Part shown: positions 1-40,574 of the stretch, one piece after another
Layout: each line of letters begins with the position of its first letter
Position numbering within the stretch: position 1 is the stretch's first letter
NCBI GenBank assembly: GCA_964629655.1
Contig: CAZVQU010000001.1
Location: 164,056-228,055 of the forward strand
DNA length: 64,000 nucleotides
Source of the DNA: an uncultured Planctomycetia bacterium
GTDB taxonomy: Bacteria; Omnitrophota; Gorgyraeia; Duberdicusellales; 4484-171
Reading direction: 5' to 3'
Translations under genes and position numbers: made by a program
Notes under the pieces: generated by a model
Told to the model about the DNA's origin: nothing
The model's database searches: none
Seen by the model: only the letters and a program-made list of their open reading frames with translations

Positions 1-1629
1 CGTACCATCGGCCATTGTAAAAGCTGCTGCTCCAGCATCACGATTAGCACCATCAGCAAGAGCATCATTTGCTGTTGCAGTAAATGCGCCGTCAATTGTT
101 ACATTCGCATTAACAAGAATACTTCTTCCTGCCTGCAAGGTAAGATTCCCTGTCCCAGCAGAAGAATCCACAGCCTGGGTTACAGTAATATCAGTATTAG
201 CCTGCAAAATAAGATTAGTTCCATTCAGAGCAGCCTCTACGTTCTCATCAGAAAAATCAGCTGTAGCTGTAGGGTTATCAGAAAAGACATCATTAGCAGC
301 AACCGCGTCTACTCCACCATCAGTAATCGTAATATTTTTTGGGTCAATAAATAATGTTCCCCTATCTCCATTCTCAGCTAATAAATCCACTGACCCTTGG
401 AATATCATACTTTCCTTACCGGATACTTCAACAAAGCCACCATCACCGCTGGATAAACCACCCTTTGCTTCAATTTTTGCACCACTCCAGAAGTTTGCCG
501 TCTCAGGTGAATAAACAATTATTTCACCACCATTCCCATCTACCTCAGCATTAGCAGTTGTTAAGCTATCTGCGGTTAAAGCAATAACATCTCGGGCATA
601 CAAATCAATGTTCCCGCCATCGCCGTCGCCAAGCGCGTCAGCATGAACTTGCCCGAACTGGCCAACTTTATCGCCGCGTATCTCTATTTCGCCACCATTT
701 ACTCCTTGATCAATTGCCGATGTAGTAATAGTTCCTGTATTTTGAATTATGCCTTCACTGGCAGAAACCAGAACAATTTTTCCGTTACGCTCAACCATTG
801 AGCCAGCGCGAACAATACCATCCTGATTAATTAACTTATCAAAGACATCCCCAACCGCAGCTACCTCCATATATACTGCGCCGCCATCAGCAGTAATAGT
901 ACCTGCATTGTTAACGCCGACATCTATCCTGTCACCATTTTGATCATAAACATTATCCAAGATTTCCTCATCAACAACTGCCTGGATATTACCGTTACCT
1001 CCTATATCTACAGTAACTTTGCTTCCGGCAACAAGGTTTACTGTTCCAAAATCAGCCCTGATTGCACCTAGATTACTGACTGCACCACCGGCTAATACAA
1101 CCCCTCCGCCAGAAGCAATAATATTGCCGGCATTAGATATAGAGTTTAATTGCTGACCGCCAAGGTCAAGAACATAATTTCCAGATAAAAAATCATCCTG
1201 GCTCATCATAAGAGTAGAAGCAATTAATCCTCCTACATTCACTTGAGCGGTAGGTGAGAATAATATGCCATTGGGGTTAATAAGAAATTGGTTACAATTA
1301 CTATTCCAAATACCGGCGATATCCGAACTACTTGAACCAATAACATTATAAAGCATAGCTGCTGAAGCGTTCGGCCCGAGACTATTTAAGGTATACCCAT
1401 TGCCAATATCAAAAGAGGTTGCGTCTCCCCACCATTTAGAACCATTGGTTATAACCGACATTTCATTACCATTAACCGAAATGTCTGCTGAGCCGATTCG
1501 ATCGGTTATTCCCGAAGGAAGATTTTCAGCATATATATTGCTGGGAAAAATATAGAAGGAAGCCAGAGCAACAGCAAGAAAGACACGTAGCCCCTTTCCT
1601 AAGCTCGGTTTATTTTTACTGTTTTGCAT
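1..1629 (-). CDS. TpsA-like exoprotein (filamentous haemagglutinin family), N-terminal part; gene runs off the window
   Basis: Minus-strand ATG at 1629..1627 gives MQNSKNKPSLGKGLRVFLAVALASFYIFPS, which looks like a signal peptide. It is followed by NPNGIL and GGLIASTL, both typical of the TPS secretion domain. Downstream is Gly/Asn/Thr/Ala-rich sequence consistent with a beta-helix. The reading frame stays open to position 1. Confidence 0.7.
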   Translation of the reverse strand, partial: MQNSKNKPSLGKGLRVFLAVALASFYIFPSNIYAENLPSGITDRIGSADISVNGNEMSVITNGSKWWGDATSFDIGNGYTLNSLGPNASAAMLYNVIGSSSSDIAGIWNSNCNQFLINPNGILFSPTAQVNVGGLIASTLMMSQDDFLSGNYVLDLGGQQLNSISNAGNIIASGGGVVLAGGAVSNLGAIRADFGTVNLVAGSKVTVDIGGNGNIQAVVDEEILDNVYDQNGDRIDVGVNNAGTITADGGAVYMEVAAVGDVFDKLINQDGIVRAGSMVERNGKIVLVSASEGIIQNTGTITTSAIDQGVNGGEIEIRGDKVGQFGQVHADALGDGDGGNIDLYARDVIALTADSLTTANAEVDGNGGEIIVYSPETANFWSGAKIEAKGGLSSGDGGFVEVSGKESMIFQGSVDLLAENGDRGTLFIDPKNITITDGGVDAVAANDVFSDNPTATADFSDENVEAALNGTNLILQANTDITVTQAVDSSAGTGNLTLQAGRSILVNANVTIDGAFTATANDALADGANRDAGAAAFTMADGT

Positions 1630-1683
1630 TTTCATTACTTTCTTCTACTATCAATAATAATTTCTTACGCCGCTAAAAAATAT

Positions 1684-3510
1684 CTAAAACTCATATTGAA
1701 GCCCAAAATGAACCTTACCGGTGGAATCATCGCTTGGTTTCTCTTTACCGGCAGGAAAACCCCAATCTATCCTTCCGCGAAGATGTTCAGCAAAATCAAA
1801 ACGTAATCCAAGCCCGGCACCGACCAAATAGCTGGTGCCTTTCTCGCCAACCTGGGCATTTACAAGATATCCCTTTCCTAAATCAACAAAATATACAAAT
1901 TGAAGAGCATCTTTCAAAGACATTCCCTTTTTGTCATAAGGAACTTTTATTGCTCGAGGGAAGATAAAGGCCGGGGTTCTCAACTCTATGGTTGAAATCC
2001 AACCATAATCGGCAAGATATTCATTCTCTGGGAATCCTCTTATCGTATTAGCCCCACCAAGAGATAATTGTTCGGAATTGACTAGCGGATCCTCAACATA
2101 TTGTCCCCGTATTGAAGCAATCAAATACGACGATAACGGCAAACGGGTAGTCCTGGAAAGTGAACCAACGTATTTTACAAATTCACCCCCGGCATCTAAA
2201 CGGCTGGAACTCACATCATATTTATCCATAGAACCAATGAAATCATCCATGCCAACACGTACTTCACTAGACACGAATGTCCGCCCCATGCTATCTTTCT
2301 CATCAAAGCTTATTCCTGCCTTCAAAACTCGTAGTTCATCATGGCTTGTTTCCTGGCCTAATATCTTGTTCACTACACTTATCGAATCCAACCCGGCAGT
2401 AACCGTGCTGGCAATATTAATCGGAGTCGGCTCTAAGAAATTATCATCAAATAAAGTATGTCGCCCATATACACCCCAAAGCGTTGCTCTACCTTCAGGA
2501 GTAAGGATTTGAAACATTTCACCGATGTCAGCCTGACTATACATGCCGTAAAACCCTAAGCGAGTATCGTAGCGAGAAATCGGGAAATTATAATCAAGAC
2601 TGCCTGCATATACTCTATCATAGTTAGAGCCTGCCCGCAAATTCAAAGACAAAATATCATCATTCCCAAGAAGATTGTTATGTACAAAGCCTAGCTCAGA
2701 ACGGTACTTGCCGCTATATTCGGTCCCCTGATTATTATACCCTAAATACCAATGTATCGGACTCCTTTCTTCTTCAAGTTTCAATAAAACATCCGAAGTA
2801 GCCGGCTCTTCACCCGGCAGTAATACCGCTTTTACCACTCTATCCGGCTGTCTATTAAACCGTTTAATATCCTTTTCCAGCTTAGCGTAATCCAAAATTT
2901 GCCCTTCCTCGACAATCAATTTACGCTTAATTTTCTCTTTGCTGTAATACTTACCGTCTTCAGCCTTAACCTTACCCAAACGGCCTTCAATAACCTGGAA
3001 TTCTATACTACCATCTGTAACTTCTTGTGCAGGCGCGTAAGCCAAACTGGTAAGATACCCTTTGCTACGATAAAATGCAGTAAGTTCATCAGCTGCATTT
3101 TTCAAATCACTCATTCCTAAGTCTTTATCGCGATATTTATCTAAAATCACCTCAAAATCTTTAGCCTTAAATAAATACACTCCATTTAAAATGAACTTCT
3201 CTACAAAAACTTTTGGCTCGGGCGGAAGTAATGCCTCCTTTGCCGCGGGAACCGTATCTGCCACTCTTTCTATAACGTCTCTTTGTCTCCGGATTATCTC
3301 TTCCTGTGCCGAAACTTTTTTCTCCAATTTTTTAATTCTTTTTTCAAATTCATCAACTCGGCTAACTTTTTCTTTAAGCCGATTTAATTCTTCCATTATC
3401 GCCTTAATATCGCTGCTCTCACTGGGAAAAACAGCAGTACTATTTGACAATAAAAAGACTAAGCTTATAAATACGACAACGAAATTCTTTTTATTGATAA
3501 TTTTCCTCAT
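1684..3510 (-). CDS. TpsB outer-membrane transporter (ShlB/FhaC family) of a two-partner secretion system
   Basis: 608 aa with a signal peptide and POTRA-like segments (VEKFILNGVYLF...). The C-terminal beta-barrel ends in the OMP signature ...GLQYEF. It sits immediately upstream of the TpsA-like gene. Confidence 0.75.
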   Translation of the reverse strand: MRKIINKKNFVVVFISLVFLLSNSTAVFPSESSDIKAIMEELNRLKEKVSRVDEFEKRIKKLEKKVSAQEEIIRRQRDVIERVADTVPAAKEALLPPEPKVFVEKFILNGVYLFKAKDFEVILDKYRDKDLGMSDLKNAADELTAFYRSKGYLTSLAYAPAQEVTDGSIEFQVIEGRLGKVKAEDGKYYSKEKIKRKLIVEEGQILDYAKLEKDIKRFNRQPDRVVKAVLLPGEEPATSDVLLKLEEERSPIHWYLGYNNQGTEYSGKYRSELGFVHNNLLGNDDILSLNLRAGSNYDRVYAGSLDYNFPISRYDTRLGFYGMYSQADIGEMFQILTPEGRATLWGVYGRHTLFDDNFLEPTPINIASTVTAGLDSISVVNKILGQETSHDELRVLKAGISFDEKDSMGRTFVSSEVRVGMDDFIGSMDKYDVSSSRLDAGGEFVKYVGSLSRTTRLPLSSYLIASIRGQYVEDPLVNSEQLSLGGANTIRGFPENEYLADYGWISTIELRTPAFIFPRAIKVPYDKKGMSLKDALQFVYFVDLGKGYLVNAQVGEKGTSYLVGAGLGLRFDFAEHLRGRIDWGFPAGKEKPSDDSTGKVHFGLQYEF

Positions 3511-5735
3511 CTATCTTGTGCCTTTCTTCGTTTACGAAGCTTTTCAGCTTGTTTAGCTTCTCTCGCAACGCGAGCTTTCTCTCGCTTAATCTCCAGATTA
3601 ACTTCTCTTTGTATTTGCTTGCGGAGTTTTGCAGCCTGCTTAGCATCTTTCGCAGCTTGGGCTCTTTCTCTCTTATCCTGGATTCGAGCTTCTTTCTCTC
3701 TCTTCTTGCGGAGCTTTTCAGCTTTCTTAGCTTCCTTCTCAGCCTGGGCTGTTTCTCTCTTAATCTCCAGATTAACTTTTCTTTGTATTTGCTTACGAAG
3801 ATTTTGGGCTTGTTTAGTTTCTGCCGCGGTTTGAATGCTCTCTCGCTTAGCCTGGAGTTGATCTTCTCTTTGTTTCTTCCTGCGGATTTTTTCCATCAAC
3901 TTAGCCTCTTTTGCAGCCTTCGCTTTCTTTCTTCTAACATATAATTCCACTTCTTTTTGTTTCTGCTTACTGAGTTTTTCAGCTTTTTTAGCCTCCTTGG
4001 CGGCTTGCGCTTTTTCTTTCTTGGCTTGGCGCTGAGCTGCTTTATCTTGAGCCGCTAGTTTAGCTGCTCTTTTTTCCTGCTTGCGAAGCCTTTCAGCTGC
4101 CTTAGCCTCTTTTGCGGCTTGAGCTACTTCTCTCTTAACTTTTAACTCAGCTTCTTTTTGTATTTGCTTACGGACTTTTGCAGCTTCCTTGGCAGCTTTT
4201 TTAGCTTGAATTCGAGCTTCTTTTTGCTCCTGTTCGCGGAGTTTTTCAGCCTGCTTAGCCTCTTCCGCAGCTTGAGCCTCCTCTCTCATAACTTTCAACT
4301 CAGCTTCTTTTTGTATTTGCTTATGAAGTTTTGCAGCTTTCTCAGCTTCCTTCTTAACCTGGGCTGCTTCTCTCTTAACCTGCAAATCGACTTCTTTTTG
4401 TATTTGCTTATCAAGCTTCTCAGCTTGTTTAGTACCTTTCGCGGGCCGACTTACCCGCTTACTCAAAATCGCTTTTATCTTTTTCTTTTTCTTACGAACT
4501 TCTCTTTTTAAACCTTTCTTGTCTGTAATATCCTCAACGTAATTGAATATGGGCAGAGCAGTTTCATATTCTCCTATTAGAAATAAATCATTCGCGTCTT
4601 CAAAAATCTCCTGAGGTGTCTTTTTAACTTTTATAACTATATAATCGCTCGTTCCCTCCACAACGGTAGTTTTTTTACGCTTAAGCTGCAGCTCGACTTC
4701 TTTTTGTATCTTCCTGCGAAGTTTTTCAGCCCGTTCAGCTTCTTTCTCGGTCTGAACTTTTCTACCTCGACCATCTAGCTTAGCTGCTCTCTCTTCCTGC
4801 CTCCGGAATTCTTCAGCTAACTTAGCCTCTTCCGCGGCTTGAGCTTCCTCTCGCTTAAGCTGCAACTCAGCTTCTCTTTGCATTCGCTTGTGGAGCTCTT
4901 TTGCTTGCCTAGCTTCCTCCTCGGCTTGGACTTCTTTTCTTGGAACACTTACCTCACCTGTTCTCTCTTCCTGCTTAGGGAATTTTCCAGTTTTTTTAGC
5001 TTCCTTGGCGGCTTGGGCTTTTTCTCTCTTATCCTGGATTCGAGCTTCTTTTTGCTCCTGCCTGCGGAGTTTTTCAGCTTTTTTAGCCTCCTTGGCGGCT
5101 TGGGCTTTTTCTCTTTTATCCTGGATTCGAGCTTCTTTTTGCTCCTGCTTGCGGAGTTTTGCAGCTTCCTTAGCATCTTTTCTGGCCTGGACCTCTCGTG
5201 CCTTCAACTCGGCTTTTATCCTTTTATTCTTCTCCTTGTCTTTAACACTATCTCTCTTAGCCTGGATTCGAGCCTCTTTCTCTTCCTGTTTGCGGAGTTT
5301 TGCAGCCTGCTTAGCGTCTTTTGCAGCTTCCTTAGCAGCTTTTTTAGCTTGAATTCGAGCTTCTTTTTGCTCCTGCTTACGGAGTTTTGCAGCCTGTTTA
5401 GCCTCCTTCGCGGTAGAATACTCCTTTTCTGGTTCTGAGGGAATAGTTGACTTCTCTTCTAAGGAAGGCCTTGTAAAAATACTTAGAGTACTATTTATTC
5501 TGTCCTTGCGAATACTCTCTAAATATATCTTTGCCTTTTCGTTGTAAGGATTAACCATTAAGGCCTTTTTGAATTCTGTTTTGGCCTCTTGAATGCGGCC
5601 GCTTTCTAAAAAAGTTTCACCTAATTCTACGAGGTAATCATCTGAAGAAGGTAAGTCAATATAATCATCTGAAGAGGGTAAACCGTTTAGGGGGAAAATG
5701 AGCAGCATTAAAGATAGTATGAGCAGTATCTTCAT
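3507..5735 (-). CDS. Secreted single-TPR protein with long TolA-like Lys/Glu/Ala/Gln/Arg-rich repeat region
   Basis: 742 aa with a signal peptide. One TPR-like unit is present (LVELGETFLESGRIQEAKTEFKKALMVNPYNEKAKIYL). Dozens of approximately 22-aa repeats follow, of the type KEAKQAEKLRKQEQKEARIQAKK. The stop overlaps the tpsB start in ATGA (3507..3510). Confidence 0.8.
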   Translation of the reverse strand: MKILLILSLMLLIFPLNGLPSSDDYIDLPSSDDYLVELGETFLESGRIQEAKTEFKKALMVNPYNEKAKIYLESIRKDRINSTLSIFTRPSLEEKSTIPSEPEKEYSTAKEAKQAAKLRKQEQKEARIQAKKAAKEAAKDAKQAAKLRKQEEKEARIQAKRDSVKDKEKNKRIKAELKAREVQARKDAKEAAKLRKQEQKEARIQDKREKAQAAKEAKKAEKLRRQEQKEARIQDKREKAQAAKEAKKTGKFPKQEERTGEVSVPRKEVQAEEEARQAKELHKRMQREAELQLKREEAQAAEEAKLAEEFRRQEERAAKLDGRGRKVQTEKEAERAEKLRRKIQKEVELQLKRKKTTVVEGTSDYIVIKVKKTPQEIFEDANDLFLIGEYETALPIFNYVEDITDKKGLKREVRKKKKKIKAILSKRVSRPAKGTKQAEKLDKQIQKEVDLQVKREAAQVKKEAEKAAKLHKQIQKEAELKVMREEAQAAEEAKQAEKLREQEQKEARIQAKKAAKEAAKVRKQIQKEAELKVKREVAQAAKEAKAAERLRKQEKRAAKLAAQDKAAQRQAKKEKAQAAKEAKKAEKLSKQKQKEVELYVRRKKAKAAKEAKLMEKIRRKKQREDQLQAKRESIQTAAETKQAQNLRKQIQRKVNLEIKRETAQAEKEAKKAEKLRKKREKEARIQDKRERAQAAKDAKQAAKLRKQIQREVNLEIKREKARVAREAKQAEKLRKRRKAQDR
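3540..5440. repeat. Intragenic tandem direct DNA repeats (approximately 66-75 nt units) encoding the KEAK repeats
   Basis: An example is the near-identical 75-nt units at about 5000..5075 and 5076..5150. The long opposite-strand ORFs seen here are repeat artefacts. Confidence 0.7.
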
Positions 5736-5899: not shown

Positions 5900-7357
5900 T
5901 CAACCGGCTTTTTTTCTTATAAAAACACCGAGTAAAAAAATACTACAAATAAAAGGAAAAAACTCTCCGTGCTTATTGTAAAAACTTCTCTCCTCATTCA
6001 AAGAGACTACAAAGTTCTTGGTTCCGGCAAAGAATACTTCCTTTCTATTCTTCCGAAATTTCTCAATTTCGCCTTTAAAAGAAACCCAACCGCTTATGCC
6101 GGTATTAGCGCTTCGGATTATAGAAATTCTATTCTCAACAGCTCTTAAAGTCATAATGCTGAGGTGCTGGCTGGCTTCCGGCTCCCCCTTAAACCAGGCA
6201 TCATTAGTGATGTTTACTAGAAAATCGTTGCCCCGTGCAAAATTCATAACATGCTTAGGGAAAACATCTTCGAAACAAATAAGTGCAGAAAATCTCTTAC
6301 CCTTATGAGAAAAACTCACGAAATCGTCGCCTCTGGCCATATCCCCAATGGAATTAAAGACGCTGATAAAGGTTAAGAATCTTCTTAAAGGAACATACTC
6401 ACCATATGGAACTAATTTTATCTTTTGGTAAGCGTCTACGAGCTTTGCTTTCTTATCAAATTGCAAAGCCTCATTGTAAAACTGGCCTTCTTTTTCTGTC
6501 ACAGCTCCAATAACAACATCCTTTTCTAGCTTCCAGATAAATTGTTCCAATTCATAGAAATTTTCTTCACCAACAGTAAGCGGCCAGGAAGCTTCAGGAA
6601 AAATTACTAAAGAGTCTTCTTCTGTTTCTTCAGCTAAGCTATTTAATACCTTTACAATTTTAAACCGGGAAAAAGGCTCCCACTTTAATTCCTGAGGAAT
6701 ATTCGGTTGGACTATTGATATTTTATGAGAATCTGTTTCTTTTAAATTTTTTACTCTGTAGACTGAGTATGAAAAGAAAATTGTAAAGACAAAAAAAACG
6801 AAAATTGTCTTCTTGAAAATATTTTTTCTTAACTCCGGGTCTCTGCTTCTTTTGCTTAGAAACAAAAATGCCTGAAGAATTAAAATATTTACCATTACAA
6901 TTAAAAAAGAGATAAGTTTTGTTCCAGCTAAATCTGCTATCTGGATAAGGTAAAAATTATCGTATTGGGAATACCCTAAATTTGCCCAGCCAAATCCACA
7001 CCAGATATTTTCTTTTAAAAACTCTAGGAGGACCCAAAGGCAAGGCAAAGTAATAAGCCTCAAGGTCTTCCTGTAAAGATTCCTCCCAAGCAACGAAAAA
7101 ATTATACTGTAGATAGAAAGGTAAGAAAGTAAAAAAAGTAACCCTAGCTTGGTAACATTAGCTACCCAAAAAAGAGTAAGGCCATAGAAAGAAAGAGCGA
7201 AAACTATCCCCGAGAAGACAGCTGTCTTAAGGCGTCCTCTACTTATTGCATAGATAAAAGGAGCTATTGAAAACCAAACCAGGAAAGAAAGATTGGGCAG
7301 GTTAAAACTTAATCCGGTTAGCGCGCCGCTGAGAAAAGATAATATTAAGCTGATCAT
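5900..7357 (-). CDS. lnt: Apolipoprotein N-acyltransferase
   Basis: 485 aa. The N-terminus is polytopic membrane sequence. The C-terminus is a CN-hydrolase domain with a catalytic Cys in ALICFEDVF. Confidence 0.8.
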   Translation of the reverse strand: MISLILSFLSGALTGLSFNLPNLSFLVWFSIAPFIYAISRGRLKTAVFSGIVFALSFYGLTLFWVANVTKLGLLFLLSYLSIYSIIFSLLGRNLYRKTLRLITLPCLWVLLEFLKENIWCGFGWANLGYSQYDNFYLIQIADLAGTKLISFLIVMVNILILQAFLFLSKRSRDPELRKNIFKKTIFVFFVFTIFFSYSVYRVKNLKETDSHKISIVQPNIPQELKWEPFSRFKIVKVLNSLAEETEEDSLVIFPEASWPLTVGEENFYELEQFIWKLEKDVVIGAVTEKEGQFYNEALQFDKKAKLVDAYQKIKLVPYGEYVPLRRFLTFISVFNSIGDMARGDDFVSFSHKGKRFSALICFEDVFPKHVMNFARGNDFLVNITNDAWFKGEPEASQHLSIMTLRAVENRISIIRSANTGISGWVSFKGEIEKFRKNRKEVFFAGTKNFVVSLNEERSFYNKHGEFFPFICSIFLLGVFIRKKAG

Positions 7358-15973: not shown

Positions 15974-16040
15974 AGCTCACCTTAAGCAAATAAAATATCA
16001 CGGAACAGATTAGCTCTGCCTTTTAGAGCCCTAATATTAT

Positions 16041-16733
16041 TCAATTGGGTCCAAGAACTCGTACTAAGAGTGACTCGATAACTAGACGAGGATCCATACC
16101 TTTTTCTTTTATCGCCCGATCTGCCTTCCACAAATATTTAAAATACCTCTCTTTCTCGGTAGGATTTTTAAGAAAAGAAAGCTTTCTAACTAATATTCCT
16201 ATAATCTGCGGTCCTAATATTTTATCTTTGGAGCCACCGGCAAATAACTTCTCAAGGATATACACCGAAACTGCCAAATCATTCCTTTTCAAGCTTGTTA
16301 TAAAATCCTCTATTGTAGCTTTTTCCCTAGTTGAAACTACCCTGAACAAAGCCGCTCTTTTTAAAACAGAGACAAAAAATTCATCATTAGTAAACCGCTT
16401 ATCTCTTTGAAACTGGTAGTAATCTTTATCGGTCTCAAAGATAAGATAACTATTAGATAATACCCTCTTTAAATTACCAAAAAGGAATTTCCTTGCTGCC
16501 GAAGGCAAATCCTGAGAATTCTTAAAAACTGCTATCTTACCTCCTCCGAAAGAAGTGGTAAAAAGTTTTTCTCCTAAATCCTTAGGATTTACCTCTTTGC
16601 CATAAAAGGTAAGAACATTAAGAGATGACTCTTTCCCTTTTAGTATTCTTTTCTTTATATTTTCTACTGCCCGTTGCCGCTGCAAAAAATTAGTTCCCGA
16701 AATTAAAAAAACTCTTTCTCTGATGTTTACCAT
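16041..16733 (-). CDS. holA: Probable DNA polymerase III delta subunit (short)
   Basis: 230 aa. The N-terminus VFLISGTNFLQRQRAVENIKKRIL looks like HolA. It sits in the conserved lptE-holA / holA-rpsT context. Confidence 0.45.
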   Translation of the reverse strand: MVNIRERVFLISGTNFLQRQRAVENIKKRILKGKESSLNVLTFYGKEVNPKDLGEKLFTTSFGGGKIAVFKNSQDLPSAARKFLFGNLKRVLSNSYLIFETDKDYYQFQRDKRFTNDEFFVSVLKRAALFRVVSTREKATIEDFITSLKRNDLAVSVYILEKLFAGGSKDKILGPQIIGILVRKLSFLKNPTEKERYFKYLWKADRAIKEKGMDPRLVIESLLVRVLGPN

Positions 16734-17245
16734 TCTTCCGTAACTGCCTCACATATTCTTCTTGCCGTATCATCTATTAAATCCAGCTGAGCAGCACTCT
16801 CACTCTTTGAATTAGCTCCGGTAAGATAGTAAGTAGTCTCTCCAGTGACATCCTTCTCTTTCAATACTCCTCCATCACCGGATGTAAGCTTTATGTGAGC
16901 GTGGAGACGCAGGCGTTGCTCACTTACTGCATCGCTATCAGTGTAACGTAGGGTCTCTTTACTGTAGTCATTCACCGTGCAAACAAGTTTTAAAGCTTTC
17001 GGGTCTTCGCTTACTACCTTAAGATTTCCGTCGATATTAAACTTACTAACTATCTCATTAGTCAATCTATTCTCAATCAAAATAGGGAAACTCGTATAAT
17101 CTGAGTATTTTCTATTCTCAGAAGTAATATTTATCTTGTTTATTACTGGCTTAATCACTATTGCATCTTCGGTATAAATAAAACCTCGCGTGGTGTACCC
17201 ACAACCAACCACAACAAGAAGTAATAAAACTAAGAAATTTTTCAT
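16727..17245 (-). CDS. Lipoprotein, LptE-like
   Basis: Start chosen at MKNFLVLLLLVVVGCGYTTRG. A GGAGG sits 6 nt upstream and there is a lipobox VVGC. Size and position next to holA fit LptE. Confidence 0.4.
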   Translation of the reverse strand: MKNFLVLLLLVVVGCGYTTRGFIYTEDAIVIKPVINKINITSENRKYSDYTSFPILIENRLTNEIVSKFNIDGNLKVVSEDPKALKLVCTVNDYSKETLRYTDSDAVSEQRLRLHAHIKLTSGDGGVLKEKDVTGETTYYLTGANSKSESAAQLDLIDDTARRICEAVTEEW

Positions 17246-17285
17246 CGGTCGCCTCCTGTAACTTTTTTGCTCTATCCTCAATTAA

Positions 17286-19679
17286 TTACCAAAACCAAAA
17301 CTTCTTCTTCACTCCCTGCTGCTTTTTCTTCTTCCTTAGTTTCGCCGCAAGCAAATCTTTTTTTCTAGCTCTAGCCACCTTTTCCGCCTCTAGCTTCTCT
17401 TGACGCTTCTTTTCCTTGAGCTCTTTCTTCTTTCTTATTTTTTCCTGTTTTTTCTGGATCTTCTCCCTTCGGCGTTTTTGCTTTTCTGCTATTTTTTTGT
17501 TTTTACGCTCCCTTTTTTCTCTTGTTTCCTCGCTTTCGGATTCCCTCTTCTTTCTTATCTTTACATCCTTTAAATATTTTTTCTTTGCCCGAGCTTCCTC
17601 TTTTCTTTTAAGCTTATCTTGCTTCTTTTGCCCTTTGAGAAACTTTTTTTTCTGAGCTCGTTCCTTCTTTATCCTTACTTTTTCCTTTTTATTGCGAAGC
17701 TTTTTGGCCTGCTTAGCTTCTTTTTTAACCTGCCTGCGGAATTTTTCAATTCGTTTAGCTTTTTTCGCGGCCTGAGCTCTTTCTCTCTTGGCCTGAAGCC
17801 GATCTTCTCTTTTGCCCTCCCTGCGGAATTTCTGAACTAGCTTGCTTTCTCTCTTTGCCCGAGCTTTTTCTTCTCTCTTGAGTCTATCCTGCGCTCTCTC
17901 CCGAGCTCGTTTTTTCCTTACCCTTGCCTTTTCCTGTTTCTTACGAAACTTTTCGACCTGTTTAGCTTTCTTAGCAGCTTGAGCCTCCTCTTTTCTCTTG
18001 AGCTTATCTTGCTTCTCTTGCTCTTTGAGAAACTTTTTTTTCTGGACTCGTTCTTGCTTTATCCTTACCTTTTCTTGTTTCTTGCGAATCTTTTTGGCCT
18101 GTTTAGCTTCCTTCGCGGTTTGAGCTTCCTCTTTTCTCTTGAGCTTATCTTGCTTCTTTTGCTCTTTGAGAGACTCCTTCTCTCTGGCTCGCTCTTGCTT
18201 TATCCTTACCTTTTCCTTTTCCTTGCGGAGCTTTTTGGCTTGTTTAGCTTTTTTCGCAGCTTGAGCTTTTTCTCTCTTAACTTTCAACTCAGCTTCTCTT
18301 TGTATTTGCTTGCGGAGTTTTTGAACTTGTTTAGCTTCTTTCGCAACCTTAGCTTCTTCTCGTTTAGCTTGAAGTTGATCTTTTTTTTGTTCCTGCTCAC
18401 GAAGCTCCTCAGCTTGTTTAACTTCTTCCGCAACTTTGGCTTTTTCTCGCTTAGCTTGAAGTTGATCTTTTTTTTGTCCTTGCTTACGAAGCTCCTCAGC
18501 TTGTTTAGCTTTCTTAGCAGCTTGAGCTTCCTCTTTTCTCTTAAGCTTATCTTGCTTCTTTTGCTCTTTGAGAGACTCCTTCTCTCTGGCTCGCTCTTGC
18601 TTTATCCTTACCTTTTCTTGTTTTTTCCTTTCTTTCTCTTCTTGAACTTCCCTTTTTTTTCTTACCCTTTCTTCCTTCTTCGCAGTTAACACTTCTTGGC
18701 TTACTTCCTTCTTTAATTCCCTTTTTGTGATGTTTCTTTGAACCAACCCTTCTAATTCCTCGATTCTTTCTATGGCAAGATCATAATAATCACTATCGGA
18801 ATAATTCTTAACTACTTTTTTATAATAAATTATGCCGCTTTTATATTGATCCTGATTTTCATAAAATTGGCCGGTATTAAATACTTTTTTTGCCTCTTCA
18901 TTCCTTAAGGTTCTAAGCTGATCCTCTGCCTCAGAGGAAATCTTTGCCTCAGGATGATCTTTTATAAACTCATCAAGCCTACTTGCTGCTTCCTGAAGGT
19001 ATGAAGAATCATAATCCGCACCGGAGAATGCTTGTGATGTTGCTAAAGCTAATTGATACTTTGCTGGTGCAGCCCACTCACTATCTGAATAATTATCTAT
19101 GACTTTCTGGAAAGCTTTCCGGGATTCCTCATAGCGCCTCAATTGAAAAAGTATCATTCCTAATTTATATTGGGCTCGGGGTGCATACTCTGAGTATGGA
19201 ACTTTATTAACGATTCCTCCGAATATCTCAATTGATGGATGCTCTACGAAATCATAAAGAGATACGCCTAGCCATTCCTTACGCTCCCTATTCAAAAAAT
19301 ACTCTCCGATATGATATTCTCTCTCCACCACCTCATTTATCCTCTGGCTATTAGGATAGGAAGCGACTAGTTTTTGATACTCTCGAAAAGCATCATAAGG
19401 CTTATCAAACTTCTCCAGGCACCTGGCTAGGTAATATTGAGCCTCAGCAGCCTCCTTAGAATCAGGATAATTTATTAGAAGCTTTTTGAATGCTTCGTAG
19501 GCTTCCTTGAATTGATCCTTCTTGAAATACTTTAGGCCCTGTTTATATTGAAGATAGGGGTTGGCCAAAGCTGCATATTTAGGATTTTTCCACTCTTGGG
19601 TCTTCGGAGACCATATCCAAAAAGGGTAGGCATCAAAGGAAAAAAGAAGTAAAATCAAAAGGATTATGCTCTTTCTCAT
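17286..19679 (-). CDS. Secreted multi-TPR (BamD/CpoB-like) protein with long Lys/Glu/Arg/Gln-rich repeat tail ending FWFW
   Basis: 797 aa. A signal peptide is followed by about 330 aa of TPR-like repeats. About 450 aa of KEAKQ/KRKEEAQAAKKAKQ repeats follow. The C-terminus is KKKFWFW. It is a paralogue of the 3507..5735 protein. Confidence 0.8.
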   Translation of the reverse strand: MRKSIILLILLLFSFDAYPFWIWSPKTQEWKNPKYAALANPYLQYKQGLKYFKKDQFKEAYEAFKKLLINYPDSKEAAEAQYYLARCLEKFDKPYDAFREYQKLVASYPNSQRINEVVEREYHIGEYFLNRERKEWLGVSLYDFVEHPSIEIFGGIVNKVPYSEYAPRAQYKLGMILFQLRRYEESRKAFQKVIDNYSDSEWAAPAKYQLALATSQAFSGADYDSSYLQEAASRLDEFIKDHPEAKISSEAEDQLRTLRNEEAKKVFNTGQFYENQDQYKSGIIYYKKVVKNYSDSDYYDLAIERIEELEGLVQRNITKRELKKEVSQEVLTAKKEERVRKKREVQEEKERKKQEKVRIKQERAREKESLKEQKKQDKLKRKEEAQAAKKAKQAEELRKQGQKKDQLQAKREKAKVAEEVKQAEELREQEQKKDQLQAKREEAKVAKEAKQVQKLRKQIQREAELKVKREKAQAAKKAKQAKKLRKEKEKVRIKQERAREKESLKEQKKQDKLKRKEEAQTAKEAKQAKKIRKKQEKVRIKQERVQKKKFLKEQEKQDKLKRKEEAQAAKKAKQVEKFRKKQEKARVRKKRARERAQDRLKREEKARAKRESKLVQKFRREGKREDRLQAKRERAQAAKKAKRIEKFRRQVKKEAKQAKKLRNKKEKVRIKKERAQKKKFLKGQKKQDKLKRKEEARAKKKYLKDVKIRKKRESESEETREKRERKNKKIAEKQKRRREKIQKKQEKIRKKKELKEKKRQEKLEAEKVARARKKDLLAAKLRKKKKQQGVKKKFWFW

Positions 19680-19712
19680 AGAAAAAAACTATATCAGAAG
19701 CCTTGTTTCTTG

Positions 19713-21197
19713 TCAATGAGAAAGGGGGCGCTTCTCAACCTCATAATCTGCCCTATTAAGCAAAGAACCGTCCCCGAAAAAAGCAAAAATTGTTCCAAGA
19801 ATAAGGTAATAAATGGCTACACCTTTAAGAGAAAAATTGTAAGAAATAAAAGAAAATTTTATCGAACCAAGAACTTGCACCAGGTTAATAAAACCCGATA
19901 TAAGCAAGGACAAAACTTCTCCTAGAGATTGGGCCAAAAATCTTAGAGGGGAAAAGATTAATAGAAGAAAATTAGTCACTAAGATAAGGGTGAAAAAGGG
20001 AATCAAGGCAACATTGTAAAAGATACTTAAAATATGTATTTTTCCAAAATAATAGGAGACCACGGGTGTTAAAAAAAGTGTTACAAATAGGGAGCAAAAG
20101 AAAATCTGCTTTAAGTAATGTAGCGCTACTATCTTAACTGGTTTTACGTTAAATGTTTTGAAGCTCAAAATTATGGCAAAAACAGAGATAAATGACAACT
20201 GGAATCCAATTGCAAAAAGGGATGAAGAATCTAGAAATAAAGCAACAAATCCGGCTAAAGCTAAAGAATTCAGCGCATTGGTCTTTCTTTTAAAGAGAAA
20301 ACCAAAAGCAAATACCGAATACATGGTAACAGCTCGCAAAGTAGAAGAGCTGGCTCCGGTAAGAAAAGTATAAAAATAAAGAAAAACTAAAGAAATAATA
20401 AGAGAGGCTCTAAATCTTACATTAAAAAACTTTAATACAAAGAATAAAATTAATGAAGTAAACCCTATGTGTAATCCGCTTATAGCCAGGAGATGAGATA
20501 CCCCAGCATTAGAGAATATCTCTCTTTCTTCACCTAAAAGTTCCTTTCTTCCTAAAAATACTCCGCTTAAAAATCTATATCCTCTATCTGAACAATTTTC
20601 CCTCAAAACGTTAAGAATATAATTAGATGATTTTCTCCCAAATTGTGCCCAGATTCCTAAAGGCAATTCTTGAAGGCCAACATCCTTTTTGATGTTTAAA
20701 GAGTAGTATGAATAACCATGGTATTTTCTCTTAGCTATCTTACCCTCTAATTGGTAGCAGCCTAGATAATCCATGCTCTGGGTATAATCACTAACCTTTA
20801 CCTTAAGTTTTAGGGGATAAGAATTTATCTTCCTTACTTGAGCAGTAAAGGTATTTCTCCTAGCTCCTTCTTTAGGTAGCGAGATGACTTTCAGAGTAAT
20901 GGCGCTCTCTGTTTTGGTAAATCTATCGATAGTTTGTAGGGAATGAGATGAATGCCATAGGGCTCCTAAAGAAAAAAAGAAAATCAAAATAAAAATATCT
21001 GAGAGAAAAAGCTTGCGATAGCGGTAGAAGATATAGACAAGACTAAGGGTGACTAGAGAAAGGCTAACAAAGATGAGAGGGGAGGTGAGAAAATTCCTAA
21101 GAATAATTCCCAAACAAAAACAGATAAAAAGAAAGAAATTTAGAAGACCTGCAAAATTTATCTTTCGCGTCAACAATTGTTTAATTGAAAGCGACAT
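19713..21197 (-). CDS. comEC: ComEC/Rec2 DNA-uptake channel (competence domain only; no C-terminal metallo-beta-lactamase domain)
   Basis: 494 aa polytopic protein with the HLLAISGLHIGF competence motif. Confidence 0.8.
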   Translation of the reverse strand: MSLSIKQLLTRKINFAGLLNFFLFICFCLGIILRNFLTSPLIFVSLSLVTLSLVYIFYRYRKLFLSDIFILIFFFSLGALWHSSHSLQTIDRFTKTESAITLKVISLPKEGARRNTFTAQVRKINSYPLKLKVKVSDYTQSMDYLGCYQLEGKIAKRKYHGYSYYSLNIKKDVGLQELPLGIWAQFGRKSSNYILNVLRENCSDRGYRFLSGVFLGRKELLGEEREIFSNAGVSHLLAISGLHIGFTSLILFFVLKFFNVRFRASLIISLVFLYFYTFLTGASSSTLRAVTMYSVFAFGFLFKRKTNALNSLALAGFVALFLDSSSLFAIGFQLSFISVFAIILSFKTFNVKPVKIVALHYLKQIFFCSLFVTLFLTPVVSYYFGKIHILSIFYNVALIPFFTLILVTNFLLLIFSPLRFLAQSLGEVLSLLISGFINLVQVLGSIKFSFISYNFSLKGVAIYYLILGTIFAFFGDGSLLNRADYEVEKRPLSH

Positions 21198-21528
21198 GCT
21201 TCTTTATGGCTTCTATTTTTTTATCGCCAATGCCTTTAACCTTTTTTAAATCTTCTAAATCCTTGAAAGATCCAAATTGATTACGATAATCAATAATTCG
21301 GCGAGCAATTACTTCCCCTATGCCGGGAATTCTCTTTAAGTCCCCTGGTGAAGCCGCATTAATATTGATAGGTCTGCTAAAGTCGGAGTTTTCAGATATA
21401 AGAACTCTTTCTCTATCAAGAGACAGATCTTCCCGGCTATCATTTAGAATTTTTAAAATGCTGCCTATCAAAACTAAAATTCCTATAAAGATGAGGACTT
21501 TTCTTTCTTGGTGGGTAAGGGAGAACAT
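21181..21528 (-). CDS. comEA: DNA-binding competence protein ComEA (HhH)
   Basis: 115 aa. A membrane anchor precedes a tandem HhH region (ININAASPGDLKRIPGIGEVIARRII...LKKVKGIGDKKIEAIKKHV). Confidence 0.85.
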   Translation of the reverse strand: MFSLTHQERKVLIFIGILVLIGSILKILNDSREDLSLDRERVLISENSDFSRPININAASPGDLKRIPGIGEVIARRIIDYRNQFGSFKDLEDLKKVKGIGDKKIEAIKKHVAFN

Positions 21529-21553
21529 CTGGGCCTTACTTTCCTGAATCTAA

Positions 21554-38598: not shown

Positions 38599-39357
38599 TT
38601 AGCGAGGCTTTGTTAATTGCCCTTTAAGGATAGTAAGTAAATCATTAGGCGTTAGATTCCGAGTCAACTGTCCGTTTATGGCCAAAGATACTGAACCATT
38701 TTCTTCCGAGACTGACACGACAAGTGCGTCCGAATTCTCAGAAAGACCTACTGCTGCCCGATGGCGCATGCCTAAAGTCCTCTCTAGGTTCGGATTATCA
38801 CTAAGCGGAAAAAGACAGGAAGCAGCTATTACTGTTGTTTCATCAACCACTACTCCGCCATCATGTAATGGTGCCGAAGGATAAAAAATGTTTTGTAATA
38901 ACTCTGTTGTAAGCTCAGCATTCAAAACTACCCCACTCTCGATATACCGTTTAAGCCCGATTTCCCTCTTTATAGCGATAAGAGCACCGTGTTTCTTGCG
39001 CGAAAGAGCTCCAGCTGCAGAAACGATTTCACGTAAGGTTTTCTCGATCTCCTCCCTTTTAGGTTCAATCGAGAAAATATGACGTTTGCCTAAATGTATA
39101 AGACCTTCCCTTAGCTCGGGCTGAAAAATAATAACTACCAGAACCAGAAAAAAAGCAAAAAGGTAGGTAAGCAAACGTGTCAAAATCGGTAAACCCAACA
39201 TTTGAAAAGTAAGCAGAGAGATTATCAGAATGATAATACCTCTTAAAAGGTAAACGGCTTTTGTGCCTTTTAAAAACAGAAATATCCTATAGACAACCGC
39301 CCATAGGATTAATATCTCAACTATAGCTTTCCATTTTAGGAGTCCTAAAAGATCCAT
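38599..39357 (-). CDS. cdaA: Diadenylate cyclase CdaA (c-di-AMP synthase), membrane anchored
   Basis: 252 aa. Three N-terminal TM helices. DAC motifs DGGVVVD and GMRHRAAVG. Confidence 0.85.
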   Translation of the reverse strand: MDLLGLLKWKAIVEILILWAVVYRIFLFLKGTKAVYLLRGIIILIISLLTFQMLGLPILTRLLTYLFAFFLVLVVIIFQPELREGLIHLGKRHIFSIEPKREEIEKTLREIVSAAGALSRKKHGALIAIKREIGLKRYIESGVVLNAELTTELLQNIFYPSAPLHDGGVVVDETTVIAASCLFPLSDNPNLERTLGMRHRAAVGLSENSDALVVSVSEENGSVSLAINGQLTRNLTPNDLLTILKGQLTKPR

Positions 39358-40574
39358 TAGTTATTAGTAATTTTTGAGGCTACTTTTATAGCCTGAGCAG
39401 TTTCTGCTACATCATGTACCCTTAAAATATTAGCACCCTTAGCAAAAGAAATGATGCTAGCGGCAATTGTTCCTACCAAACGCTCACTAGTACCCACATT
39501 AAGTATCTTACCAATAAAAGATTTACGAGACAACCCTAAAAAAATCGGTAGCCCCAAAACCTTCAGTTTGTAAAGTTCATTAATTATCTTGGTATTATCT
39601 TCTAGACGCTTACCAAATCCTATCCCGGGATCGATAAGAATCTGACTCTTACTTATACCTCTCCGGTCGCAAAACTTCAATCTTTCTTTGAAAAAATCAA
39701 TTATCTCTACTGTTACATCTTTATAGCCAGGTTTTATTTGCATAGTCGCAGGAGCCCCCTTCATATGCATTAATATACACCCTAATTTATATCTCTTAAT
39801 TAAAGACGCCATTTGGGGGCTACCTCTTAAAGCTGTAATATCATTAATTATATCAACTCCTTCGGCCACAGCTGCTTTTGCTACTGGATACTTATAAGTA
39901 TCTATGGCTAGAAGAACTTTTTTGAATTCCTTGCGCAAAGCTTTCAAAACAGGCACAACCCTCTTTATCTCATCTCCTACTTTAATTGGGCTTGAGAAAG
40001 GCCTTGTTGATTCTCCGCCTAAGTCTATTATTTTTGCCCCGGATTTCACCATCTCCTCTGCTTTCTCTAAAGCTAAACTTTGAACTTTGGACTTTGAACT
40101 TTGGACTTTGCTAAGTAGCCCATCTCCGGTGAAAGAATCCTTAGTGACATTTATAATCCCACAGATAACTGGTTTCTTAATTTTTAGGACTTTACCTCTA
40201 GCCTTAAAAATAAGCTCTTTCATACCCAAGTTGTTCAGATAAGCAGAAATGCTTCCAGAAACTTCTTTCAGAGCAAACGGCTGATCTTTCAATTTTTCAG
40301 AGAGCTTTTTCAATTGGCTTAAGCTTCCAAAAATAAGAACAGAAGTCTTTATGTTCTTTATTAGGGCTTTCCGCTCCAAGGCTGCATCACTTCCTAGAGA
40401 AAGAAGTTGTTGCTTTATTATATTTGCTTCCCAAGACTTGATTCCTTCAATTCTAAATGCTGCATGTAGACTTTTCGGGGATAAAATTCTTACGCCCTCA
40501 GGGCTTACGCCCATAGAAGACATTATCTTTCGGGCTTCTTCTTCATTTCTTACGCTTAGGGGAGTTATCCTCAT
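39357..40574 (-). CDS. folP: Dihydropteroate synthase with approximately 130-aa N-terminal extension of unknown function
   Basis: 405 aa. The pterin-binding barrel starts at KKPVICGIINVTKDSFTGDGLL, with DTYK and GASIL-like motifs after it. The N-terminal 130 aa have no recognisable motif. Confidence 0.8.
   Translation of the reverse strand: MRITPLSVRNEEEARKIMSSMGVSPEGVRILSPKSLHAAFRIEGIKSWEANIIKQQLLSLGSDAALERKALIKNIKTSVLIFGSLSQLKKLSEKLKDQPFALKEVSGSISAYLNNLGMKELIFKARGKVLKIKKPVICGIINVTKDSFTGDGLLSKVQSSKSKVQSLALEKAEEMVKSGAKIIDLGGESTRPFSSPIKVGDEIKRVVPVLKALRKEFKKVLLAIDTYKYPVAKAAVAEGVDIINDITALRGSPQMASLIKRYKLGCILMHMKGAPATMQIKPGYKDVTVEIIDFFKERLKFCDRRGISKSQILIDPGIGFGKRLEDNTKIINELYKLKVLGLPIFLGLSRKSFIGKILNVGTSERLVGTIAASIISFAKGANILRVHDVAETAQAIKVASKITNN

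Follow-up and report, generated by a model that had tools for sequence, protein, structure and literature searches.

The subject of this analysis is a gene on the minus strand of a 64,000-nucleotide stretch of Omnitrophota DNA (contig CAZVQU010000001.1; this stretch is the window below, and coordinates are positions within it). The gene, 17286..19679, is an uninterrupted open reading frame (ORF) of 797 amino acids (aa). It encodes a signal peptide, a tetratricopeptide repeat (TPR) domain of about 300 aa, a 472-aa repeat tail of K, E, R, Q and A, and a C-terminal KKKFWFW. BamD is the TPR subunit of the β-barrel assembly machine (BAM), and one of its two essential, most widely conserved subunits. 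We identify the gene with high confidence as the bamD orthologue of the Omnitrophota, still in its ancestral place within an operon-like comEA-comEC-bamD-lptE cluster. Its tail is chimeric and joins ancestral BamD-tail units of about 47 aa to 29-aa units that are otherwise found only in a second gene of the window. The fuller explanation that we favour, in which a BamD orthologue carries a chimeric, basic, FWFW-tipped tail with a tethering role, is held with moderate confidence.

The TPR domain and its genomic position

We assign the domain to BamD because of its family scores, its match in the PDB and the superposition of its predicted structure. The NCBIfam BamD model TIGR03302 exceeded its curated cut-off of 81.4 bits with a score of 88.7, and Pfam YfiO (PF13525) scored 48.2 bits against a cut-off of 25. 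The CpoB/YbgF model TIGR02795 reached 66.4 bits and stayed below its equivalog cut-off of 90.1. Together with the YfiO and BamD models, the TPR family matches span residues ~40-315. A phmmer search of the PDB retrieved BamD of Rhodothermus marinus (3qky, E 2e-7). The AlphaFold2 (AF2) model, with a predicted local distance difference test score (pLDDT) above 90 across most of the TPR domain, was aligned by Foldseek to Escherichia coli BamD chains in BAM complexes with target-normalized TM-scores of 0.70-0.79 (for 5d0o_D, a root mean square deviation of 2.9 Å over 199 columns). The original prediction for this ORF, made from the letters alone, had listed 797 aa, a signal peptide, a TPR domain, charged repeats and the KKKFWFW end, all of which the translation and family matches bear out. 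It had described the TPR domain as BamD/CpoB-like. The first half of that label stands and the second does not, and the more general claim, that the protein belongs to the cell envelope and has a TPR domain like that of BamD, is supported.

With residues 1-340 as query we collected 311 homologues. Every named organism among them belonged to the Omnitrophota and many of the proteins were labelled BamD. The homologue in Candidatus Susulua stagnicola was 80% identical, and the best match in a scan of GTDB genomes was 82% identical. Compared with the studied BamD of E. coli (YfiO/ComL; 2yhc, 5d0o_D) and R. marinus, the protein shares a homologous TPR domain of the same fold and, being encoded beside lptE, a context of outer-membrane biogenesis. 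It differs in a longer TPR region (~300 aa against ~220 aa) and in carrying FWIWSPKT without a lipobox cysteine where they have a lipidated cysteine, and it alone has a polycationic, predicted helical C-terminal extension, 472 aa long and tipped with FWFW. Lineage-specific C-terminal extensions of BamD have a precedent in the alphaproteobacterium Caulobacter, in which about 60 residues are added to a lipidated BamD (Anwari et al. 2012, PMC3359395); as far as the description there goes, repeats and an aromatic tip are unmentioned. The TPR domain described here would presumably perform the normal BamD job on BamA.

Gene order gives the same answer. The order in a close relative, whose BamD has 407 aa, is leuS-comEA-comEC-bamD-lptE-(230-aa ORF)-rpsT-murJ-uvrC-...-secA, and a complete 1.5-Mb Omnitrophota genome has the same order around a tail-less BamD of 314 aa. 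Across GTDB species loci with enough flank, lptE lay directly 3' of bamD in 61 of 62, tail-less 315-aa orthologues included, while comEC lay directly 5' of it in 35 of 63. We conclude from these frequencies that bamD-lptE is the conserved unit and that the novelty in this genome is confined to the 3' part of the gene. The gene had been described as inserted between comEC and lptE; it instead occupies the ancestral bamD position. The neighbours comEA, comEC, lptE and rpsT had been named correctly. The place given to holA is taken by the 230-aa ORF, which follows lptE in 53 of 67 loci, had no match in Pfam and is left unassigned. The 797-aa protein is the product of an otherwise ordinary housekeeping gene with an unusual appendage.

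The sole exception to lptE adjacency is locus L041, which has a shortened bamD ORF and lptE about 580 bp further downstream. In this locus (CAYQUQ010000005.1, 3058..3816) the BamD ORF ends after 253 mature residues. A frameshift or an assembly error probably explains the shortening, for the homologue P0024, with an identical signal-peptide sequence, is intact at 465 aa and is found on seven contigs. Apart from this one locus, the genes of relatives are intact and not frameshifted. All the conditions that the original prediction had named as refuting it (repeats unrelated at the protein level, frameshifted pseudogenes, an unconserved FWFW tail) thus came out in favour of a real feature.

BamD was first described in Neisseria as the competence lipoprotein ComL, and bamD lies here directly downstream of comEA-comEC with a gap of 33 nucleotides. 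One could read these facts, along with the tail's net charge of +121, as signs that the polycationic tail is a periplasmic DNA binder that assists ComEA/ComEC in uptake. We consider this very improbable. Orthologues without a tail also have comEC next to bamD, and about 45% of species lack this adjacency, while that of bamD and lptE is nearly universal; no DNA-binding domain was detected with Pfam or NCBIfam; and any polycation binds DNA non-specifically.

The chimeric repeat tail

Near-pure K/E/R/Q/A sequence begins at about residue 316. Residues 326-797 contain 30% K, 15.5% E, 13% R, 11% Q and 11% A, with proline and glycine nearly absent, and it is this segment that carries the charge of +121. 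Relatives fall into three states. Most BamD homologues are tail-less proteins of ~315 aa whose TPR domains are 34-66% identical to that of the 797-aa protein. In a subgroup the tail is charged and ~50-350 aa long, often with an acidic patch at the end and without an aromatic tip. In the closest clade (TPR domains ~77-87% identical) the tails are basic, measure 91-249 aa and end in KKKFWFW. At about 472-483 aa, the tail studied here is the longest seen among the BamD homologues, so that tail length ranges from 91 to 483 aa, more than five-fold, among relatives with TPR domains at least ~77% identical. The aromatic tip (FWFW, rarely FRFW or FWLW) was present in ~23 cluster representatives and five GTDB species loci, all of the closest clade, so that the tip is conserved, as the original prediction required.

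We compared bamD (gene A) with the gene at 3507..5735 on the minus strand (gene B), the second gene mentioned above. Tandem Repeats Finder (TRF) detected an 87-bp period (29 aa) in both genes, in gene A at 18238-18529, and in gene A also one of 141 bp (47 aa). Blastn between the two genes returned 48 high-scoring segment pairs (HSPs), the best of them 70-78% identical over 200-326 bp and falling on aa ~373-491 of gene A. A further HSP at nucleotides 1849-1965 of gene A (77% identity) marks a patch at aa ~617-660. At the protein level the two products matched with 63 bits, or 88 bits with the repeat region of B as query, whereas composition-preserving shuffles gave no more than 20 bits. The common 29-aa unit, approximately AQAAKEAKQAEKLRKQIQKEAELKVKRE, can be aligned in register in both proteins; the 797-aa protein carries it in only the two tail parts just named. 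Hence the expectation that A and B share a repeat family held at both the DNA and the protein level. Their description as paralogues did not, for every HSP was confined to the tails and the likeness is limited to the repeat module.

The remaining repeats of the tail have another affinity. The region of 47-aa units (aa ~484-600) matched the tails of other BamDs of the FWFW clade with 35-62 bits, and gene B with 21 bits. Conversely, the B-type 29-aa repeat matched the 797-aa BamD with 88 bits (E 1e-21), and the next best score among 121 BamDs was 22 bits, in a comparison that covers the best 120 of the 311 homologues. The tail is therefore a composite of ancestral BamD-tail units and B-type units. 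Alignment of the region 16000-21600 to the close relative with the 407-aa BamD (L001/L009) was collinear, with ~86% nucleotide identity on both sides of a break at 17497..18614, about 1.1 kb without a counterpart in the relative. An assembly chimera between the two genes was considered and rejected: since their longest exact common string is 29 nucleotides and the repeat copies have diverged (73-89% identity), a misassembly is unlikely.

These comparisons are consistent with the following history. In one sub-lineage BamD would have gained a highly basic, helix-forming C-terminal extension, which in the clade nearest this genome (Candidatus Susulua-like) would have come to end in KKKFWFW. Growth to 472 aa would then have proceeded by tandem amplification of the ancestral ~47-aa unit and uptake of 29-aa units, for which ectopic recombination between bamD and the unlinked gene B, an accessory gene of a two-partner secretion (TPS) operon, would be the simplest account. 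Judging from the distribution of the units, gene B was probably the source, a direction that we regard as somewhat better founded than the explanation as a whole. The chimeric tail illustrates well how repeat modules can pass between envelope genes that are not linked.

Much of this growth may have been neutral. According to this alternative, replication slippage and recombination in an AAG/GAA-rich tract expanded a largely neutral low-complexity sequence that persists because it leaves BamD undisturbed, and only the short ancestral tail with FWFW is functional. The extreme length polymorphism, with a 1.1-kb block missing from an 86%-identical genome, would fit, as would the lack of detectable structural periodicity or salt-bridge optimization and the independent expansion of similar charged repeats in gene B and its orthologues. 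However, the reading frame and the terminal FWFW have been kept through 1.4 kb, and tails of very different length have a constant composition (K+R ~43-47%, D+E 18-20%, little proline or glycine). The divergence between repeat copies also argues against a very recent accident. We judge neutral expansion unlikely, though it is the most plausible of the alternatives to the favoured explanation. Like DNA binding, and like the β-signal mimicry discussed below, it is less supported than the favoured reading.

The FWIWSPKT motif, the FWFW tip and a possible tether

To our knowledge, BamD of studied bacteria has always been described as a lipoprotein. In the Omnitrophota, FWIWSPKT follows the signal peptide in ~65 GTDB species loci (among L009-L079), and F20, W21, W23, S24 and K26 are invariant in 71-73 aligned BamD sequences of the phylum. 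Almost all of these ~65 species lack a lipobox cysteine; in two, a cysteine directly precedes FWIW, in a poor lipobox context. A small-x-small pattern, [AVST]-x-[SPAGT], precedes FWIW in these species and is compatible with signal peptidase I, with proline at position -1 in about 40% of orthologues. The AF2 model places a helix within the signal peptide (residues 2-14) and FWIWSPKT in a small β-hairpin (strands 22-24 and 29-31, pLDDT ~70).

Because the signal-peptide region has no cysteine and FWIWSPKT is found in its stead, we file the 797-aa protein as a predicted non-lipoprotein variant of the BamD homology family. The organism itself has a lipoprotein pathway, since LptE carries the lipobox VVVGC and the window encodes an Lnt homologue (5900..7357). 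A whole phylum of ultra-small uncultured bacteria thus appears to make BamD without a lipid anchor, using an aromatic N-terminal motif. This bears on the question of why outer-membrane assembly factors are lipoproteins, which has been reviewed together with the observation that several of them still work without lipid (PMC11784454). Our literature search found no description of an Omnitrophota BamD, an unlipidated BamD clade, the FWIWSPKT motif or an FWFW-tipped polycationic tail.

The C-terminal FWFW mirrors this N-terminal motif: among the real ORFs of the window, the pattern [FWY]W[FILVWY]W is found just twice, both times in the 797-aa protein, once at its mature N-terminus and once at its C-terminus. 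The sequence between them is predicted to be helical. AF2 placed tail helices at residues 319-391, 407-619 and 627-796, and in the 407-aa homologue it modelled the tail as one helix of 88 residues, mostly with pLDDT above 90. We found no power above shuffles for a heptad or a 3.5-3.65-residue hydrophobic periodicity, and strongly hydrophobic residues make up 13.8% of the tail. Opposite-charge pairs at i/i+4 numbered 65, against 71 ± 6 in shuffles, and so were not enriched. From these periodicity and charge-pair statistics, the tail is neither a canonical coiled coil nor an optimized ER/K helix, and both candidates were rejected, although helicity itself is predicted. Single α-helix (SAH) domains of the ER/K type and coiled-coil stalks resemble it in being long, charged, free of proline and glycine and predicted to form uninterrupted helices. 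SAH domains, however, are near neutral and enriched in i/i+4 opposite-charge pairs, whereas this tail has its large positive charge, no such enrichment and no heptad signal. In the light of the models it is best described as a helix-prone polycation.

The original prediction went further and proposed that the products of genes A and B are TolA-like paralogues, TPR domains with charged repeats, which build an envelope-spanning or surface-layer-like scaffold. Both do have signal peptides, long charged helical regions and the common 29-aa unit. Both stand next to Omp85-family systems, BamD as the partner of BamA and gene B through its coupling to TpsB, and helices of 73, 213 and 170 residues could in principle span tens of nanometres. 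We nevertheless find this scaffold improbable. The N-terminal domain is an orthologous BamD and not a paralogue of gene B, and without heptad periodicity no coiled-coil rod is to be expected. Tail length varies so widely among close relatives, down to zero in most of the phylum, that a fixed-length spanning element is unlikely, and the strong net charge argues against self-assembly into a lattice. Nor does the comparison with TolA hold beyond composition. TolA domain II and CpoB (YbgF) likewise form long periplasmic helices rich in lysine, alanine and glutamate, and CpoB combines its helical region with a TPR domain, as its sub-threshold match reflects. But the 797-aa protein has no TolA/TonB domain in Pfam or NCBIfam, TolA domain III included, no inner-membrane anchor and, in place of tol-pal neighbours, comEC and lptE; its TPR domain scores as BamD, not CpoB.

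We propose instead that the tail works as a basic, aromatic-tipped, membrane-associating tether. It would probably be flexible, a polycationic helix adhering to acidic surfaces of the envelope, for example anionic lipid head groups, while the lysine-flanked Phe/Trp tip would insert at the membrane interface. So placed, the tail would act as a second, lipid-independent tether duplicating the N-terminal FWIW, and not as a strut of fixed length across the envelope. In cationic Trp/Phe-rich membrane-interface peptides, such as Lys/Arg-Trp antimicrobial peptides, basic and aromatic clusters drive binding to anionic interfaces. KKKFWFW is such a cluster too, although here it caps a housekeeping protein of the periplasm and its membrane binding is putative. 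This mechanism is tentative, and we hold it with distinctly less confidence than the orthology. As a candidate for a lipid-independent anchoring or tethering device, the FWFW-tipped polycationic tail has the merit of being simple and testable.

The tip had also been compared to an outer-membrane protein (OMP) C-terminal signature. A β-barrel OMP with a C-terminal β-signal was rejected, as the AF2 model is all-helical save for the two-strand N-terminal hairpin, and the suggested signature did not survive. A subtler version is that FWFW is a tethered mimic of the aromatic β-signal, an auto-regulatory plug in the substrate site of BamD/BamA. BamD is a known receptor of the β-signal, the C-terminal residue is aromatic and preceded by aromatics, and the tip is conserved in its clade. 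Yet FWFW lacks the alternating polar/hydrophobic pattern and the glycine of the β-signal consensus, its N-terminal twin FWIW points to a common anchoring or binding role, and neither AF2 model (797-aa or 407-aa protein) docks the tip on the TPR domain, the tip having a pLDDT below 50. We regard this mimicry as highly unlikely, on a par with DNA uptake.

Several points weigh against the tether explanation as well. That missing docking of FWFW on the TPR domain speaks against it too, and the mechanism is one that we infer only. Most Omnitrophota BamDs are tail-less yet also without a lipid anchor, so that the tail is not essential for anchoring, and the very large variation in its length fits weak constraint. 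The frequent proline at position -1 makes the cleavage site of the signal peptide uncertain, and the protein may keep it as an uncleaved signal-anchor. A second, canonical bamD may lie outside the visible 64 kb. With regard to the tail's origin, the B-type unit comparison has the scope given above, and the length of the repeat tract in the assembled sequence cannot be verified without reads.

A more far-reaching version of the tether proposal would have the acyl anchor of BamD replaced by FWIW across the Omnitrophota, with one clade adding FWFW on a long helix. BamD would then be clamped at both ends to membranes or to BamA, and the 29-aa repeats shared with the TpsB accessory protein might physically couple the BAM to the TPS machine that exports a giant exoprotein. 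We offer it as speculation that is doubtful as a whole.

Gene B, the TPS locus and other features of the window

Gene B had been called a TPS-operon protein, but its product is not the secreted TPS substrate. Pfam gave no match to the TPS domain (PF05860) in it, and TpsA starts at 1635 on the minus strand, which corrects the annotation of the locus: the gene at 3507..5735 is not TpsA. It overlaps the start of TpsB by 4 nucleotides. In three relatives, charged-repeat genes were likewise found 5' of TpsB orthologues (L005, 1..93; L006, 5144..6004; L008, 3..404), the type and number of repeats differing between genomes. One of these proteins shares the 'SDYIxIK' module with gene B (51% identity, E 1e-11), and another ends with a gene-B-like ...KQ.EK.RK....QDR motif. 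From this synteny, gene B is a conserved accessory gene upstream of TpsB, and the order of the locus is accessory gene, TpsB, giant TpsA. In relatives the TpsB orthologue is followed by a gene for 4154 to 9757 aa; one of the giant Omnitrophota genes therefore probably borders the window. The preprint on Omnitrophota giant genes does not mention TPS systems. We know of no TPS system that needs a charged-repeat TPR accessory protein.

The TpsB relatives came from a protein search and contig look-ups; a metagenome scan with TpsB on exact 8-mers returned no relatives. An exhaustive HMMER search with gene B recovered its TPR module and the 'SDYIxIK' module, not its repeats. The signal peptide and TPR module of gene B also head three proteins of ~900-1000 aa in the representative library (P0216, P0223 and P0242), which end in ...YYKKKF, ...IFYRKTF or ...YKRNF, one of them with a K/E-rich linker. 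By these sequence features they are probably large β-barrel outer-membrane proteins, which suggests that a TPR module with a charged linker is a modular periplasmic element in Omnitrophota envelope proteins. TpsB itself has a charged, coiled-coil-like N-terminal stretch (EELNRLKEKVSRVDEFEKRIKKLEKKVSAQEEIIRRQRD, aa ~38-85) ahead of its POTRA domain. Positions of the features discussed are collected in table 1.

Table 1. Features of bamD, its neighbours and the TPS locus (positions in the window; aa numbering of the encoded protein).
Feature	Position	Strand	Basis or remark
Signal peptide, aa 1-19	19623..19679	-	MRKSIILLILLLFSFDAYP, read by inspection; without lipobox cysteine
FWIWSPKT motif	19599..19622	-	at or near predicted mature N-terminus; occupies position of lipidated Cys in other BamDs
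BamD TPR domain, aa ~28-315	18735..19598	-	NCBIfam, Pfam, phmmer, Foldseek, AF2
Polycationic helical repeat tail, aa 316-790	17310..18734	-	composition and AF2 helices
Repeat block (~1.1 kb) without counterpart in relative L001/L009, aa ~356-727	17497..18614	-	blastn
29-aa (87-bp) units, gene-B type, aa ~373-491	18207..18563	-	TRF, blastn
Second patch of gene-B-type 29-aa units, aa ~617-660	17700..17831	-	blastn HSP and unit register
47-aa (141-bp) units, ancestral BamD-tail type	17905..18266	-	TRF: 2.6 copies, 84% matches
KKKFWFW tip	17289..17309	-	stop codon 17286-17288
comEC	19713..21197	-	directly upstream of bamD, 33-nt gap; Pfam Competence 169 bits
lptE	16727..17245	-	directly downstream of bamD; Pfam LptE 34 bits; likely start ATG 17245 after AGGAGG; lipobox VVVGC
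230-aa ORF (position called holA)	16041..16733	-	overlaps lptE end
Gene B	3507..5735	-	signal peptide, one weak TPR-like module, ~18 copies of 29-aa unit, internal 'SDYIVIK...YNY' module
TpsB (ShlB/FhaC-type Omp85 transporter)	1684..3510	-	Pfam ShlB 89 bits, POTRA_2 63 bits
TpsA N-terminus	1..1635	-	Pfam TPS domain (PF05860) 62 bits, NPNGI-type motif; runs off window start

Opposite the two repeat genes lie L/F/S-rich antisense ORFs on the plus strand, 17979..18689 (236 aa) and 17416..17840 across bamD and 3516..5438 across gene B. We rejected them as genes and regard them as by-products of the stop-poor, AAG/GAA-rich repeats. Elsewhere in the window, a 7-bp tandem repeat (AACTTTG, five perfect or near-perfect copies) lies at 40076..40110, inside the ORF 39357..40574.

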